Assembly (NCBI GenBank): GCA_021805245.1
Contig: JAJZFS010000078.1
Location: 1-60,866, forward strand
Length of the DNA: 60,866 bases
DNA from: Pseudomonadota bacterium
GTDB taxonomy: Bacteria > Pseudomonadota > Alphaproteobacteria > Micavibrionales > UBA2020
Reading direction: 5' to 3'
Shown in pieces: positions 19,773-52,084 of the stretch. Each line of letters starts with the position of its first letter. Position 1 is the stretch's first letter. Position numbers and translations under genes: made by a program. Below the pieces are notes generated by a model. That model was not told where the DNA came from and did no database searches. It saw only the letters and a program-made list of their open reading frames with translations.

Positions 19773-20288
19773 TCAGGCTTTTTCTGCCGCCTTTTTTTGC
19801 AACGGCTTGGCGTAGCGCGAGAATTCTTTCACCACATGCGCGTAGACCGTGCGCTTGAAAGGCACGGCATATTGCGTCAGCTCGTCGAAGGGCACCCATT
19901 TCCAGTTGCCAAACTCCGGCTCGTCGTGGGTGGTCAGGTCTATTTCGTCGTCGGTGCCGAGAAAGCGCAGGGCGATCCATTTTTGCCTCTGGCCGCAGTA
20001 TTTTCCGTCCCAGAGCCTGTCGCTCAGCGCGGGCGGAAAATCGTAGCATATCCAGTCGTGCATCATGCCGAGGATCTCCGCGTTGCGCGTGCCGATTTCC
20101 TCTTCCATTTCGCGGAAGACGGCGGTTTCCGGCTCTTCGCCTTCGTCGATGCCGCCTTGCGGCATTTGCCATCCGTTGGGGTTGTCAAGCCGCTCGGCGA
20201 TCAGGACATGACCCTCGGCATTGAACAGGACAATGCCGACGCCCGGCCGGTAAATCTTGGAAGGTTGGGTGTTCCCGTTTTCCGGCAT
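19773..20288 (-). CDS. rppH: RNA pyrophosphohydrolase RppH (Nudix)
   Basis: YRPGVG, WQMPQGGIDEGE...REMEEEIG Nudix box, GQRQKW. Confidence 0.95.
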   Translation of the reverse strand: MPENGNTQPSKIYRPGVGIVLFNAEGHVLIAERLDNPNGWQMPQGGIDEGEEPETAVFREMEEEIGTRNAEILGMMHDWICYDFPPALSDRLWDGKYCGQRQKWIALRFLGTDDEIDLTTHDEPEFGNWKWVPFDELTQYAVPFKRTVYAHVVKEFSRYAKPLQKKAAEKA

Positions 20289-20289
20289 G

Positions 20290-21357
20290 TCAGGGCTGCC
20301 TGAGTTGTGATTGCGGGGGCGGCACTGCTGCGGACGCGGCGACGGGAGATGATGGCGCGCCGGCGGCGGCGACGGGGGCTGCCACTGGCGACTGAGCCTG
20401 CGGAATATAATGTTTTTTATGTCTCCAGATGGTCTTCAACGGTGCCAGGATGATCCCCTTGGCGGCGAGGCCGTCGGCCCATGACTTTAGAATATTGAGC
20501 GTGACAGGATAGGGCTGGGCGATGCCGATGGCGTAGCCATACTTGTGCGCGTCCTGTTCCAGTCGGGAGAGCTGGTCGCTGATGGCGTCGTCTGTGGGTA
20601 TTTTATCTATGCGCAGGTTCGCCTGCAGGAAGGGAAGGCCGGTTTGCGCGGCGGTGGCAGGGGCGGTGGAATCTTCGATGCCGGGCGTTTCAATGAACAT
20701 GGCGTCGTTTCGGCGCAGGGTCGTGAAGGTGGAGGAAAGCCTCTTCTGGTCGGTCAGGTAGCGCGAGCCCATCATGTTCATGACGCCGTCTGTGCCGTCG
20801 CCACGGGAGAGCAGCCACTCAAGGTTGGCGTTGTTGACCTTGTCGCTCAGACGCGAGGACAGGGCGCGCGGGCCGGGATCGTTCCCTGGGTAGTCGGACG
20901 TTTCCATCGGCACAAGCATGAGCGCTTCGTGGTTTGCGGCTACCGCCTTGCTGACCCATGAACGCACGTCGTCGGCGTAAGGCGAGAAAGCCAGTGTGAA
21001 CTGTGCGGGCAGGTCTTCAATGGCCCTTTGCGTTTCGAGAGAAGACAGGCCGAGGTCGGAAACGATGATGGAAATGTATGTCTTGCCGTCATCGGCGACG
21101 GGCGGGAGCGTGTTGGCCGGCGTCGTCGCGGGGGTGGCGCTGGAGACGCTCGTGATTTGCGGCGTCGTATAAATGTTCCTGACTGTGGCCGTCACGGAAG
21201 GAACCTCCGCCCGCAGGCTTTCAAGAGTCCGCCCGGCTTGCGTCGAAATCCATAGGGCGCACAAGACCATCAGCAGCGCGTAAGCGGCCAGACCCTGAGT
21301 GCAACGCTTTTTATGCGCCGCAGGAAAAGATGACCATATTTCAGTCCATCTTTTCAA
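20290..21357 (-). CDS. Divergent polysaccharide deacetylase (YibQ family)
   Basis: TM anchor, IIVSDLG, TLAFSPY, VPME..YP..DPGP, NMMGS; follows ctpA. Confidence 0.88.
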   Translation of the reverse strand: MKRWTEIWSSFPAAHKKRCTQGLAAYALLMVLCALWISTQAGRTLESLRAEVPSVTATVRNIYTTPQITSVSSATPATTPANTLPPVADDGKTYISIIVSDLGLSSLETQRAIEDLPAQFTLAFSPYADDVRSWVSKAVAANHEALMLVPMETSDYPGNDPGPRALSSRLSDKVNNANLEWLLSRGDGTDGVMNMMGSRYLTDQKRLSSTFTTLRRNDAMFIETPGIEDSTAPATAAQTGLPFLQANLRIDKIPTDDAISDQLSRLEQDAHKYGYAIGIAQPYPVTLNILKSWADGLAAKGIILAPLKTIWRHKKHYIPQAQSPVAAPVAAAGAPSSPVAASAAVPPPQSQLRQP

Positions 21358-47689: not shown

Positions 47690-48563
47690 GGCGGACGCGG
47701 AAGATTCCGCCCCTTTTCAGTCGGCGGACGAGGCGCTTTCCTATCTCCGGCAGATCGGCGACCTTGCGGACGAGGATATCGTCCTTGCCGAAGCCGCGCT
47801 GGCGTTGGGATTGATTTTCCTGCCCGGCGTGCACGTTGACCGTTACCGCCAGCATTTGGCCAAGCTTTCCGGACAGGTGCGGGAGGAATACCACGCGCGG
47901 CTGCGTTTGGAAGAGAAGGACACGCTCGCCTTGCGTGTGCAGGTCCTGCGCAAGATCGTCCACGAGATGAACGATTATCAGGGCGACGATAAAAATTACG
48001 ATGACCTCCAGAACGTCAACTTCATCCGCGTTATGGAGCGGCGCAAGGGATTGCCTATATCGCTGGGCATTCTTTACATTATTCTGGCGCGCGGGATGGG
48101 GTGGGTTTGCGAAGGCCTCAATTTTCCGGGGCATTTTCTGGTGAGGATGGAAATGGACGGAGAGCGCGTCATACTCGATCCGTTCAAGCAGGGCCGCGAG
48201 ATGGACGCTGCGGCGTTGCGCGAGCTCCTCAAGTCCATCGTGGGCACAAGAGCGGAACTCTCGCATAACTATTACGATGCCGTTTCCAACCGCGAAATCC
48301 TGGTGCGGCTGGAAAACAACCTCAAGAAGCGCCTGATCGACGGCGAGGAGTACGCCGAGGCTATCCGCGCTGTGGAGGCGATCGGCGCCTTTTCACCGGA
48401 TGAATACCGTATTTATCTCGACAAGGGCGTGCTCTACGCCAAGCTGGGGCAGGGCGCACTGGCCGTGGAAGCTCTTGAAGCCTATATTGCCAAAACGCCC
48501 TATGCGCGCGAAAAACAGCAGGCGCACTTATTATTACAGCAAATAAAAGCATCGCTTGATTAA
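47682..48563 (+). CDS. SirB1-like transglutaminase-fold protein with TPRs
   Basis: RRKGLPISLGILY, G.NFPGHFL, ILDPF..G, RLENNLK. Confidence 0.9.
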   Translation: MVEADAEDSAPFQSADEALSYLRQIGDLADEDIVLAEAALALGLIFLPGVHVDRYRQHLAKLSGQVREEYHARLRLEEKDTLALRVQVLRKIVHEMNDYQGDDKNYDDLQNVNFIRVMERRKGLPISLGILYIILARGMGWVCEGLNFPGHFLVRMEMDGERVILDPFKQGREMDAAALRELLKSIVGTRAELSHNYYDAVSNREILVRLENNLKKRLIDGEEYAEAIRAVEAIGAFSPDEYRIYLDKGVLYAKLGQGALAVEALEAYIAKTPYAREKQQAHLLLQQIKASLD

Positions 48564-48643
48564 GGGGCAACTCGCCGGCTGACAAAAAACGGAGATTAAG
48601 GTATGATTTATAAGATGTTTATGTTTGAAAGAAGGATGTTGTC

Positions 48644-49093
48644 ATGTCCCTGATCACTTTGGCTATGCTTATCGCCCTGTCGCTGCTTTATATGACACGG
48701 TGGACGGTTAGAAAAGAGAATGACCCTTTGTTCAATCTGGTGGACAAATCGGACGGTTATCTCACTAAATTCGATGATTTTTTGAGGAAAACCATCCACT
48801 GCGATGCGCTGACGGCGTTCTTTATATATGCCATTGCGGCTGCGCTTTTCACGCTGCTGCTGCCGCTGGACCCTCAGGGTCTGCTCATCCGATTTTTCGC
48901 AAACGTGGTGGCCGCGTTGATGATATTGCCGTTCGTGGTCGAAAAGGCCGTTGTCAAATACAAGGATAAGGTAAATGCCGCCATCCTTCAGGAACTGGCG
49001 AACCTCGCCGCCTGGGTCGTGAGGAATGAGAAATATTTTACTTTCGTCGGCGCGGGCTTCGCCGTTCTGCTGTTCTTCGTCCTGTTTAGATAG
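48644..49093 (+). CDS. Hypothetical membrane protein
   Basis: Four hydrophobic segments; AAGGA RBS. Confidence 0.65.
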   Translation: MSLITLAMLIALSLLYMTRWTVRKENDPLFNLVDKSDGYLTKFDDFLRKTIHCDALTAFFIYAIAAALFTLLLPLDPQGLLIRFFANVVAALMILPFVVEKAVVKYKDKVNAAILQELANLAAWVVRNEKYFTFVGAGFAVLLFFVLFR

Positions 49094-49116
49094 TGCGTTG
49101 CGCATAAAAAGCCGCT

Positions 49117-49125
49117 CCCTTTGAC
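49117..49125 (+). repeat. Left target-site duplication CCCTTTGAC
   Basis: Identical to 50816-50824; the direct match runs on to 15 bp (CCCTTTGACAGGGGG), so the boundary is ambiguous. Confidence 0.75.
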
Positions 49126-49126
49126 A

Positions 49127-49224
49127 GGGGGTATAGTGTAAGGGCAGAGAGTTCCGATTTTTGACCACACGCCCAAAGATTAAGAAAACAACCCTTACCT
49201 TCTCTGGCAGGGGCTGTTTTCTTA
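49127..49224 (+). repeat. Left terminal inverted repeat
   Basis: Matches the reverse complement of 50718-50814 at 83 of 98 positions by hand alignment. Confidence 0.9.
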
Positions 49225-49231
49225 ATGATAA

Positions 49232-49333
49232 TATATCCAAACCCATCTTGTTGATATCAAGCATCATCCTGAAGCGCTTGATCAAGAGGCCACTGAAGAA
49301 CTGCTTGAAGTCATTCGCGCATATTTAAAGTAG
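49232..49333 (+). pseudogene. 3' remnant of an RcnR/CsoR/FrmR-family (DmeR-like) metal-sensing repressor
   Basis: Reads YIQTHLVDIKHHPEALDQEATEELLEVIRAYLK*; no start codon, in-frame TAA just before; directly precedes dmeF. Confidence 0.8.
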
Positions 49334-49342
49334 GAGATTACT

Positions 49343-50641
49343 ATGACTGATATGGAACCCCAGCCTGAGGTAGAATTACCAATTTTCCCACAAATTCATA
49401 GTCATGCTTTCCTGGGTGAGAAGCACGAAGGCTCGGAACGTCGGACATGGTCGGTAATCTGGCTTTGCGGCATTATGATGGCCGCCGAGATCATTGGTGG
49501 AAAATTATTCGGGTCTTTGGCTTTGATTGCTGATGGCTTACATATGTCCACTCATGCGGGTGCATTGCTACTGGCGGCCTTGGCTTACACTTATGCGCGT
49601 AAACACGTTCACGATGATAATTATGTTTTCGGTACAGGAAAGGTTGGCGATCTTGCAGGATATACAAGTGCAATCATTCTGGCTACGATTGCCTTGCTGA
49701 TCGGCTATGAAGCTGTCATGAGGTTTTTGAACCCCGTTGTAATTCACTTTAGCGAAGCTATTCCAATTGCCGTTCTTGGCCTTGCCGTTAATGTTGGAAG
49801 CGCATGGCTCCTCAGTGCTGGCGGCGGACACCATCACCACGGTCATGGGCATCATCATGACGATGATCGCAGCCATGACCATCACGACGAGACGCGCCGT
49901 ATCGGCATTGATCAAGGAATGTTGATCCTTGAAATCTTTGAAGATGGTATACCACCGCACTTCAGGGTACGCACAGAAAATATGAGAGTGCAAGCCCAAG
50001 ACTTGGCAATCGAAACAGTGCGCGCGGATGGAAAACGTGAAATATTTACCTTTGTGGATAAGGGGGGGTACCTGGAATCCCGTACTGAAATTCCCGAGCC
50101 TCATGAGTTTTCGGCAAAAATACATCTTACAAGTGAGACGGGGTCTCAAGTTTATCAAACCGAGTTTGAAGAGCATAGCCACGGTGCAGAGGATGGACGT
50201 ATACATGCCGATCATAACATGCGTGCTGCTCTTGTTCATGTCATGGCTGATGCCGCTGTGTCTGTTCTGGTTATCATTGGACTGTGTCTAGCCTATTTCT
50301 TTGGCTGGCTTTGGATGGATCCGCTTGCGGGTATGGTGGGAGCATGCGTCATTGCCAGTTGGTCTTATGGCCTCATGAGAGACACATCTGGCATTCTGCT
50401 CGACCGAAACCCTGACCGGAACATGACTAAAAATATACGTGCAGTCATCGAGTCCGAGGGTGATCGATTGACCGACTTGCATTTGTGGCGGTTGGGGCCG
50501 GGGCATATGGGGGCTATTCTGTCGGTAGCGACGGCTACCCAAAAGTCTCCTGGTTACTTTAAAACGCGGCTTTCAGGTTTTCAGTCATTATCTCATGTGA
50601 CCGTTGAGGTAGTGACGATAGCTGAACCTTCTCTTGCCTAG
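49343..50641 (+). CDS. dmeF: CDF-family Co/Ni efflux transporter DmeF
   Basis: SLALIADGLHMSTH, His-rich loop, DHNMRAALVHVMADA, DLHLWRLGPGH, LSHVTVEV; AGGAG RBS. Confidence 0.93.
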   Translation: MTDMEPQPEVELPIFPQIHSHAFLGEKHEGSERRTWSVIWLCGIMMAAEIIGGKLFGSLALIADGLHMSTHAGALLLAALAYTYARKHVHDDNYVFGTGKVGDLAGYTSAIILATIALLIGYEAVMRFLNPVVIHFSEAIPIAVLGLAVNVGSAWLLSAGGGHHHHGHGHHHDDDRSHDHHDETRRIGIDQGMLILEIFEDGIPPHFRVRTENMRVQAQDLAIETVRADGKREIFTFVDKGGYLESRTEIPEPHEFSAKIHLTSETGSQVYQTEFEEHSHGAEDGRIHADHNMRAALVHVMADAAVSVLVIIGLCLAYFFGWLWMDPLAGMVGACVIASWSYGLMRDTSGILLDRNPDRNMTKNIRAVIESEGDRLTDLHLWRLGPGHMGAILSVATATQKSPGYFKTRLSGFQSLSHVTVEVVTIAEPSLA

Positions 50642-50717
50642 GGCGTATATCACGTTACACATCCTCTTATGTATGCGCATGTGAAAACCATATATTTTCA
50701 GCACTCTCATGTACATA

Positions 50718-50814
50718 TAAGAAGACAGCCCCTACCAGTGAAGGTAAGGGCTGTTTCTCAATCTTTGGGTGTACGGCCAGAAACCGGAACTCTCTGGCCT
50801 TACACTCTACCTCC
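50718..50814 (-). repeat. Right terminal inverted repeat
   Basis: Reverse complement reads GGAGGTAGAGTGTAAGGCCAGAGAGTTCCGG...GGGGCTGTCTTCTTA, matching the left end. Confidence 0.9.
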
Positions 50815-50815
50815 A

Positions 50816-50824
50816 CCCTTTGAC
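50816..50824 (+). repeat. Right target-site duplication CCCTTTGAC
   Basis: Identical to 49117-49125; followed by the other arm of the interrupted terminator (AGGGGGCGGCCTTTTT). Confidence 0.75.
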
Positions 50825-50861
50825 AGGGGGCGGCCTTTTTGTCTTGAGCGCTCCGGGCTTT

Positions 50862-51131
50862 TTAGCCGCGCAGGCCGAGGCTGTCGATCAGCCCTTCATA
50901 GCGCTTCGGATCGACCGTCTTGATGTATTTCAGAAGGCTGCGGCGGTTGCTCACCATGGTGAGGAGGCCGCGGCGGCTGCCGAGATCTTTCTTGTGTGTT
51001 TTCATGTGCTCGGTCAGGTTCTTGATGCGGCCGGTCAGAATGGCGATCTGCACTTCCGGTGAACCTGTGTCCTTCGGCGTGGTCGCGTATTTCTTGATCA
51101 GCGCCTGCTTTTCTTTCTTCTCAATCGACAT
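50862..51131 (-). CDS. rpsO: 30S ribosomal protein S15
   Basis: [17 protein letters not shown]...HKKD..SRRGLL. Confidence 0.98.
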
Positions 51132-51151
51132 CGCATACTCCTTTTTAAGAG

Positions 51152-52084
51152 CTAGAGGTTGAACACGCGCACCGGATGCAGTTGAATGCCGTCCTTTTCG
51201 AGGAGAGCAAGCGGCTTGTTATCGCCGATGCCCAGTATGAGGTCCGTCATGTCGTCGATGCCCGCGATATCGAGGCGGCCAATATCCTGACGCGACAGAA
51301 GCCTGATGCTCTGGCCCTGCTTGATGCGGCTGATCTCGTCGTCCGTCAGGGCGAGGGCCGGGATGTCGTCCAGCACTGTCTCGACAGGCAACAGGTACCG
51401 ATCAGGGTCGGCAGATTGCACCATTTTCTCGAATACGTCCAGCGAAATCGCGCTTTCAGCCTCAAAAGGGCCTACGGCAAGCCTCCGGAGCGACGAAACA
51501 TAGCCAAAACAGCCCAAAATCAAGCCCATATCGCGGGCGAGGGCACGGACATAGGTGCCTTTGCCGCATTCCATCTCGAAGGTCGCCGTGTCGGTTGTGG
51601 TGCCGGTGAGGCGCAAATCGTAAATGGAAACGATGCGGGATTTGATCTCCACGTCCGCGCCGGCACGGGAAATATCGTAGGCGCGCTGGCCATCGATCTT
51701 GATGGCGGAGAACTTGGGCGGCGTCTGCTCTATGTCGCCGATGAACTGCGGGATCAGGGCGGTGATTTCCTCCGCCGTCGGGCGTTTGTCCGAGGTTTGG
51801 GTGACCTCGCCTTCGCCGTCGTCGGTGTTGCGCGCTTCGCCCCACGTTACGGTGAATTCATAGACCTTGTCGCGATCCTGCGCGAAGGGGATGGTCTTGG
51901 TCGCTTCGCCAAGCGCTATCGGCAGCACGCCGGTGGCGAGCGGATCAAGCGTGCCCGCATGGCCGAGCTTCTTCGCGTTGAGGATGCGGCGGATGCGGCC
52001 GATGGCTTGTGTCGATGTCAATCCTTGCGGCTTGTCGATATTCAGCCAGCCGTTGACGACGATGCCTTTTTTATTGCGGCCCAT
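51152..52084 (-). CDS. truB: tRNA pseudouridine(55) synthase TruB
   Basis: [39 protein letters not shown]. Confidence 0.97.

Follow-up and report, generated by a model that had tools for sequence, protein, structure and literature searches.

The window analyzed here is a stretch of 60,866 nucleotides from a bacterium of the alphaproteobacterial order Micavibrionales (lineage UBA2020; positions 1 to 60,866 of contig JAJZFS010000078.1 in assembly GCA_021805245.1). At positions 49127-50814 it contains an insert of 1.7 kb, hereafter the window element, which is bounded by inverted repeats, flanked by a short direct repeat and carries an intact gene for the cobalt and nickel exporter DmeF, preceded by the stump of a repressor gene. 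The neighbors of the insert are an open reading frame (ORF) of 149 amino acids, which has no match in Pfam or NCBIfam, and rpsO, the gene for ribosomal protein S15. The features of the locus are as follows:

48644..49093, + strand: host ORF of 149 aa, outside the element; next to rpsO also in the genomes G007, G004, G006 and G010
49101..49116, + strand: left-hand part of the interrupted host terminator (A-tract, outer part of the 5' stem half)
49117..49131, + strand: left copy of the target-site duplication (15-nt exact repeat)
49127..49226, + strand: left terminal inverted repeat (profile match at E 2.1e-25)
49179..49226, + strand: hairpin with adjoining A-run and T-run, inner half of the left end (-23.3 kcal/mol as folded RNA, z -5.3)
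49232..49333, + strand: 3' stump of a PF02583 (RcnR/FrmR-type) repressor gene; last 33 codons at 49232-49330, stop at 49331-49333
49343..50641, + strand: dmeF, CDF-family Co(II)/Ni(II) efflux transporter, intact, 432 aa
50718..50814, - strand: right terminal inverted repeat, with a hairpin at 50725-50754
50816..50830, + strand: right copy of the target-site duplication
50831..50846, + strand: right-hand part of the interrupted host terminator (outer part of the 3' stem half, T-tract)
50862..51131, - strand: host rpsO (ribosomal protein S15; PF00312 at 8.7e-35), outside the element

In a global alignment, 49127-49224 and the reverse complement of 50718-50814 are identical at 83 of 98 positions, with 11 transitions, 3 transversions and one gap column, which reproduces exactly the inverted copies and the 11 transitions among 14 substitutions described in an earlier, sequence-only reading of this DNA. 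A repeat search resolves the arms into 49127-49187/50754-50814 (61 nt, 84%) and 49186-49224/50718-50756 (39 nt, 90%). The inverted match is far above chance because a search of the whole 2.25-Mb genome with the left arm recovers the right arm (E 3.4e-24) and, apart from it, a single other copy, which lies on contig C85. The direct repeat CCCTTTGACAGGGGG that flanks the element is exact over 15 nt (49117-49131 and 50816-50830), more than the sequence-only reading had given, and the last 4-5 G of its left copy are at the same time the first bases of the left end. The same reading was also borne out with respect to an AT-richer interior that holds a repressor stump and an intact dmeF without a transposase: the GC content of the element is 0.479, compared to 0.573 in the 5 kb to the left and 0.611 in the 5 kb to the right, and DmeF matches the NCBIfam equivalog NF033827 at 469.6 bits (cut-off 250) over profile positions 2-308 of 309, as well as PF01545 at 1.9e-28. 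An Rfam scan of 48500-51500 at E<=1 yielded no match, and the possibility that the ends are a known RNA family was rejected on this basis.

The element is a single insertion in the hairpin of a bidirectional terminator located between the 149-aa ORF and rpsO. When 49101-49131 is joined to 50831-50846, the resulting sequence folds as one A-tract/hairpin/T-tract unit (-23.6 kcal/mol). The empty site that had been expected downstream of rpsO in relatives is indeed present in four genomes of the same genus (G007, G004, G006 and G010), in all of which the 149-aa ORF and rpsO are neighbors, and dmeF is missing from the spacer, which consists of a plain A-tract/hairpin/T-tract bidirectional terminator only. 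In the metagenome run X1 (record 3), a contig of a more abundant co-occurring relative joins position 49038 to 50864, with 130 letters between them. Contigs that bridge the junctions of the element come from mine drainage metagenome runs of three studies (X1, records 2 and 5; X5, record 9; X6, record 19), one of which may have supplied the reads for the assembly itself; those parts of the stretch that lack contig cover in runs X5, X6 and X8 carry no evidence of absence. Joints scored as "opposite strands" at 49166/50772 and 49170/50768 were considered as rearrangements and rejected: they are other copies of the end, in which the outer part is nearer to one arm and the inner part nearer to the other. 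An insertion of this kind accounts for the presence of an accessory metal-efflux gene between two housekeeping genes, neither of which is disturbed by it.

The nature of the insert becomes apparent from other elements with the same ends. The left end is present in 19 of 61 relatives (E<=0.001), often in the form of inverted pairs 1-11 kb apart, and in 19 members of a sample of 301 genomes of the order (E<=1e-6), the own genome being included in both counts, and a pattern built from the end consensus is found in 16 metagenome stretches and one IMG/VR contig. Through these ends, the autonomous copy envisaged in the sequence-only reading was found, in relatives and in metagenomes, as full elements of 10.5-11.3 kb that encode a Cas1-family integrase (casposase), a 245-aa protein, a helix-turn-helix (HTH) protein, an HNH protein, a family B DNA polymerase (PolB) and variable cargo. 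As judged from this gene complement, the elements sharing these ends are casposons, transposons that are mobilized by a Cas1 relative of the CRISPR spacer integrase and are thought to be ancestral to the CRISPR adaptation machinery, few of which have been described, mostly in archaea. Casposase matches were detected in 9 of the 301 genomes of the order (5 of the 9 are full-length open frames); within the genus, the ends occur in 7 of the 11 other genomes, where cas1 is represented by a fragment in one genome only. No ORF or fragment similar to Cas1, PolB or any other core casposon gene was detected inside 49127-50814.

The best-defined full element, from an uncultured Micavibrio sp. metagenome-assembled genome (MAG; G030, locus L029), is 10.8 kb long and encodes a Cas1 that matches PF01867 at 1.6e-41 and a PolB of 1033 aa (PF00136 at 3.5e-06; phrog_1907 at 4.8e-11 over residues 39-628), together with Sel1, ankyrin and unknown genes as cargo. 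An element of 10.5 kb in a Rickettsiales MAG (L047) has the same core genes in the same order, with a Cas1 match at 2.7e-39 and a PolB that is 65% identical to that of G030, and an 11.3-kb copy is contained in the 16-kb metagenome contig behind L055 and L058. A second PolB, of 1025 aa, matches PF00136 at 3.4e-07, and PF03175 at 3.2e-05 is also recorded for these polymerases; no relative of PolB was found by sequence among the solved structures in the PDB, the proteins being divergent. PF01867 is matched at 5.1e-42 in L030, and Cas1 is also present in L058, L056, L060, L050 and L068. The 117-aa ORF for HNH, a hallmark of casposon families 2 and 3, reaches only 0.019 with the Pfam HNH model but matches eight HNH families of PHROGs (best 1e-06) and is 68-70% identical in L047 and L055. 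Among the scanned ORFs of three full elements, no DDE transposase and no integrase family besides Cas1 was matched, and the ORFs scanned in L029, L030 and L047 gave no match to a Cas2 family; the Cas2 model PF09707 has no match in five casposase-bearing genomes either, but the same model matched only 1 of 14 control genomes.

Among solved structures, the best relative of the casposase is 6opm, the casposase of Methanosarcina mazei (5.5e-22), followed by CRISPR Cas1 (4.2e-15). Residues 64-374 align to residues 15-308 of the 431-residue 6opm chain, with only about 30 residues after that. A search of public data with the casposase gave 1192 proteins at E<=1e-20, labelled only as Cas1, the top 120 of which are 45-100% identical to it. 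The longest contig of many of these relatives (P0005-P0087) is 10.0-10.8 kb, the size of a whole element; such contigs could be free or multi-copy forms that assemble alone. Named records of the lineage are Micavibrio, Pseudobdellovibrionaceae and Rickettsiales MAGs, and at least three named lineages share the conserved outer 50 nt of the ends, which always lie at the edge of inserted DNA. The Pseudobdellovibrionaceae are outside the Alphaproteobacteria, and the casposon lineage appears to cross distant groups; both Micavibrio and the bdellovibrios are predatory bacteria. In the Pseudobdellovibrionaceae MAG (L046, 9062-10977), the same end family surrounds an element of 1.9 kb with a truncated cas1.

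Alignment of the left end with 24 other ends from 16 genomes or contigs delimits two parts. The outer ~50 nt, starting GGGGTATAGTG, form a conserved terminus that is presumed to be the casposase-binding part. The hairpin of the inner half, with its A-run and T-run, looks like a bidirectional terminator by predicted structure, and its counterpart in the right end is a terminator-like site on the - strand with 12 pairs (-21.6 kcal/mol, z -3.0); the stem is kept across the family, with changes on both sides at 3 pairs. For the outer half, a stem between positions 4-10 and 35-40 was also predicted, but these columns are nearly invariant and thus uninformative.

The duplications generated by these elements are those expected of a casposase. 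Scored in register, with the end taken to start at GGGGTATAG, ten end pairs have duplications of 13-15 bp instead of the 9-10 bp proposed from the window alone: in the nine pairs other than that of the window, the repeat is exact over 15 nt in three cases, over 14 nt in three and over 13 nt in one, and extends over 15 nt with 1-2 mismatches in two. For characterized casposases, duplications of 15 bp (PMC5137440) and 14 bp (PMC6977970) are reported, and an overlap between duplication and end, as at the left end of the window element, has already been described for casposons (PMC4046053).

The targets resemble one another in architecture and not in sequence, which differs between loci. A run of at least four A that ends 12-24 nt outside the end is present at 41 of 45 scored ends, compared to 8.3% of 20,000 random positions, and in 37 of these 41 ends it lies at 15-19 nt; four of the 45 ends duplicate other rows, and one further end missed the anchor but by eye has the A-run. 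When empty sites were reconstructed from the ten pairs, the center of the duplication was at most 1 nt away from the center of the loop of a hairpin (-17.5 to -25.9 kcal/mol) in nine. Real empty sites are available for the window locus, in four relatives, and for the C85 locus, in G007; the insertion site of the IMG/VR contig is a terminator as well. The third end in the own genome (contig C85; L003, 1500-2270) is located in a terminator hairpin that is intact in G007 (L067) and is followed by AT-rich DNA with a 204-aa ORF (phrog_13799, unknown function); with no right end and with the right half of the terminator gone, it is a one-ended remnant. A preference of the casposase for terminators and its binding to these ends are inferred from these sequence patterns only.

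Elements with these ends form a series that grades from full copies to derivatives without any core remnant. The 6.3-kb element of G046 (L030, contig C6, 1002-7271) still contains a complete cas1, whereas its polB is reduced to a C-terminal fragment; by its predicted gene content, this element is a casposon no longer able to copy itself. Pieces of polB persist in G024, and pieces of both HNH and polB in M52; cas1 is truncated in the Pseudobdellovibrionaceae element and is represented by a 48-aa fragment in the 1.1-kb element of G007, and the elements of G014 and of the window contain no core remnant at all. The metagenome contig L053 shows a less reduced state of the cargo: next to an end, it encodes a complete 92-aa PF02583 repressor and, after this, a His-rich membrane protein and part of a CDF protein. 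The repressor stump of the window element is 61% identical (E 2e-14) to residues 60-92 of this metal-sensing repressor; a Pfam search with the 33-aa stump alone gave no match, so that its identity comes from this comparison.

Considered together, these observations indicate that 49127-50814 is very probably a non-autonomous deletion derivative of a terminator-targeting bacterial casposon that lacks cas1 and polB. Its two ends are, by sequence comparison, homologous to those of autonomous copies, and its duplication is of matching length. In the mechanism that we propose, the casposase would link each 3' end of the element (...TATACCCC-3') to one of the target strands, at two positions ~14-15 bp apart that are symmetric with respect to the dyad of the hairpin, and gap repair would then yield the duplication; what the casposase reads would include the A-tract and the T-tract located 15-19 nt outside each end. 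The hairpin inside each end, with its A-run and T-run, would replace the split terminator and insulate the cargo. At the window locus, a casposon with a repressor-exporter operon of the dmeR-dmeF type would have inserted in the rpsO terminator, and an internal deletion that began at the inner edge of the left end and reached as far as codon ~60 of the repressor would have produced the 1.7-kb form. That this deletion happened in place is the version to which we lean, by a narrow judgment. The element is now immobile unless casposase is supplied: it is stranded because no casposase was found in its own genome, which is 97% complete.

Several observations weigh against this explanation. The two ends of the window element differ from each other at 15 of 98 positions, the terminus of the right end is mutated (GGAGGTAGAG), and the junction is irregular, giving in register a duplication of 13 nt with one mismatch or of 15 nt with two. 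The A-run is missing at 4 of the 45 scored ends, and the tenth reconstructed empty site, that of G007, lacks a stable hairpin even though A- and T-runs are present. Neither casposase nor PolB was found in the own genome, an assembly in 115 contigs of a kind in which casposons often fail to assemble, and among the 11 other genomes of the genus there is only one fragment. Nothing in the sequences indicates that such an enzyme has ever mobilized this copy within the lineage; no second copy of the window derivative was found, so that mobilization in trans is unsupported as well. Finally, promoter-like sites are no more common in the element than in shuffled sequences (4 found, 2.5 expected) and are thus uninformative, and the sequencing runs listed for the element include no RNA run.

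Among the rival explanations, the one that deserves substantial weight, although we do not favor it, is a variant of the same scheme that differs only in the timing of the deletion. The element could have arrived already deleted, as a mini-casposon mobilized by casposase that an autonomous copy provided in trans, in the manner of a miniature inverted-repeat transposable element (MITE) or an insertion sequence (IS)-derived mobile insertion cassette (MIC). The retention of both ends with a clean flanking repeat, the existence of short derivatives with near-identical ends such as that of G007, and the greater number of end-bearing than of casposase-bearing genomes (19 and 9, respectively, of 301) are compatible with this history, and engineered mini-casposons do move when casposase is supplied (PMC10359463; PMC5137440). 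However, each derivative has its own deletion at its own locus and none was found at two or more loci, which favors decay in place, and the own genome has only three ends in all and no detectable casposase. The alternative that the sequence-only reading had put forward, a MIC or Pack-MULE analogue moved by a DDE transposase of the IS256/Mutator-like or IS4 type with a captured fragment of a host operon, would account for the long inverted ends, the direct repeat, the lack of a transposase inside and the truncated gene at one end. We consider it extremely unlikely: the assignment to these IS families fails because the same ends bound Cas1- and PolB-encoding elements without a DDE match among their scanned ORFs, and the duplications are 13-15 bp long. 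Gene capture is not supported either. The stump appears to be a deletion scar and not a captured fragment because L053 carries the repressor intact beside exporters, as cargo of another element of the family, and because sister elements show stages of deletion; moreover, neither a parent dmeR nor a second dmeF was found elsewhere in the own genome.

Two further scenarios dispense with the transposition of a single unit by a casposase. One could imagine that a pre-existing dmeF island came to be flanked by two solo ends or miniature elements, or that a terminator-associated host repeat similar to repetitive extragenic palindromic sequences lies on both sides of it, given that the ends contain a terminator-like hairpin and that a solo end does occur on C85. 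Such a two-event history is very improbable in view of the single 15-nt repeat that brackets the whole unit and rebuilds one terminator, of the four relatives in which this terminator has nothing inside, of the scarcity of dmeF (above the cut-off in only 2 of 12 genus genomes), and of the conserved outer 50 nt that mark the edges of inserts across lineages. Hardly any credence can be given, in turn, to an island that a site-specific tyrosine or serine recombinase inserted at a terminator-borne att site, with the repeats being att-flanking sequences. Although the insertion sites are indeed specific in kind, only their architecture is shared, no integrase family of this type was matched in any full element, and inverted ends combined with a 13-15-bp duplication are indicative of staggered-cut transposition.

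If the window element is a casposon derivative, as we maintain, it is comparable to MICs, MITEs and Pack-MULEs, with the characteristics generally ascribed to these, in that passenger DNA is located between inverted ends without a transposase, but differs from them in its dependence on Cas1 and not on a DDE enzyme, in the length of the duplication and in its origin by internal deletion, not by capture. Within the casposons, the elements described here share with the family 2 casposons of M. mazei (MetMaz-C1) a Cas1-family integrase, PolB, HNH and inverted ends, the duplication there being of 14 bp (PMC6977970; PMC4046053). In the 6OPM structure, the integrated end reads 5'-TATATCCC, which resembles, by inspection, the consensus 3' end of the present elements (TATACCCC). 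The M. mazei casposase has a fused C-terminal HTH domain that is essential (PMC6977970), whereas the casposase here lacks it and is followed by a separate HTH gene. The elements described here also differ in that they have bacterial hosts, insert in terminator hairpins instead of tRNA-Leu 3' ends or the intergenic site of M. mazei, and have ends of ~97 bp that include a terminator-like hairpin. Closer in host range are the casposons of family 3 (such as HenMar-C1 and NitAL212-C1), with bacterial hosts including Alphaproteobacteria, exclusively intergenic insertions and HNH (PMC4046053; PMC4779613); this likeness is one of published descriptions, and the present elements may belong to family 3 or to a new family. 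The Cas1 of NitAL212-C1 contains fused zinc-binding and HTH domains (PMC4046053), neither of which is seen in Pfam matches of the Cas1 described here.

With respect to its composition, ends and cargo only, the window element resembles engineered mini-casposons, for which a 15-bp duplication in vitro (PMC5137440) and movement in vivo (PMC10359463) are reported. These are laboratory constructs, whereas the window element is a natural one with adaptive cargo. The solo-TIRs (solitary terminal inverted repeats) of M. mazei are what decaying casposons have left at the insertion site (PMC4779613), and the C85 remnant is of the same type; the window element, unlike them, retains both ends, the duplication and an apparently working cargo gene. 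A literature search, which covered neither the supplementary tables of family 3 ends and duplications (PMC4046053; PMC4779613) nor most subscription journals, produced no report of terminator targeting, of natural cargo-only casposons, of terminators in casposon ends or of casposons in these taxa. Thus, a terminator target with symmetric duplication, end-borne terminators and this bacterial casposon lineage are apparently undescribed.

A broader proposal can be offered only tentatively, as possible rather than probable. Under this proposal, the elements would represent a large undescribed lineage of bacterial casposons, the casposase of which reads bidirectional intrinsic terminators (A-tract, palindromic hairpin and T-tract) and cuts symmetrically about the dyad; their ends would carry spare terminators, and their deletion derivatives would serve as casposase-dependent shuttles for adaptive genes, in this case Co/Ni efflux in mine drainage. 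If this is true, the duplicated short palindrome beside an A-rich flank would be a natural counterpart of the CRISPR repeat with its leader. The casposase biochemistry considered here concerns archaeal enzymes of families 1 and 2, and a bacterial lineage with hundreds of casposase relatives would widen the picture by a symmetric palindromic target, a casposase without a fused HTH and end-borne terminators; it would also offer a simple test bed for the recognition of a repeat-like target by Cas1. Although a relic, the window element opens the way to a sizeable lineage of apparently undescribed casposons with such a target, and it suggests that casposons can leave working cargo behind after the loss of their own genes.

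The cargo is rare in the surroundings of its host. The dmeF of the element is the sole match above the NF033827 cut-off in its own genome, and the cargo DNA is present in only two of the 301 sampled genomes of the order, the own genome included. The only other dmeF of the genus, in G006, is 76% identical at the DNA level and is located at a different locus, where a profile search revealed no ends; the gene is therefore accessory in this genus. Because the repressor has been lost, dmeF is probably expressed without metal control, and the gene is probably useful in the mine-drainage habitat of the element, which fits a Co/Ni exporter as the surviving cargo. The window DmeF is ~125 aa longer than the family profile, with an insertion after the His-rich loop (residues ~183-300). 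This extra domain is 41% identical to the middle of the 348-aa His-rich membrane protein of L053 (10980-12026), a protein without a family match carried by another casposon; judging from this similarity, the two proteins may share a soluble metal-binding domain.

Some additional observations concern individual loci. The right end of the G046 element shares only ~60 nt with its left end and lacks the hairpin. In G005 (contig C46; L042/L017, ~20116-20405), an end whose terminus is degenerate adjoins rpsO within the coding sequence: the match to S15 covers residues 1-57 only, after which the frame enters the end for ~13 codons. This junction reflects either truncation of rpsO, rearrangement at the end of a casposon or a chimera in the MAG contig. 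The dmeF of G006 (L049, contig C11, 267882-272118) has a reading frame that extends to 473 aa and lies beside AT-rich DNA (GC 0.30-0.39) with a 138-aa ORF.

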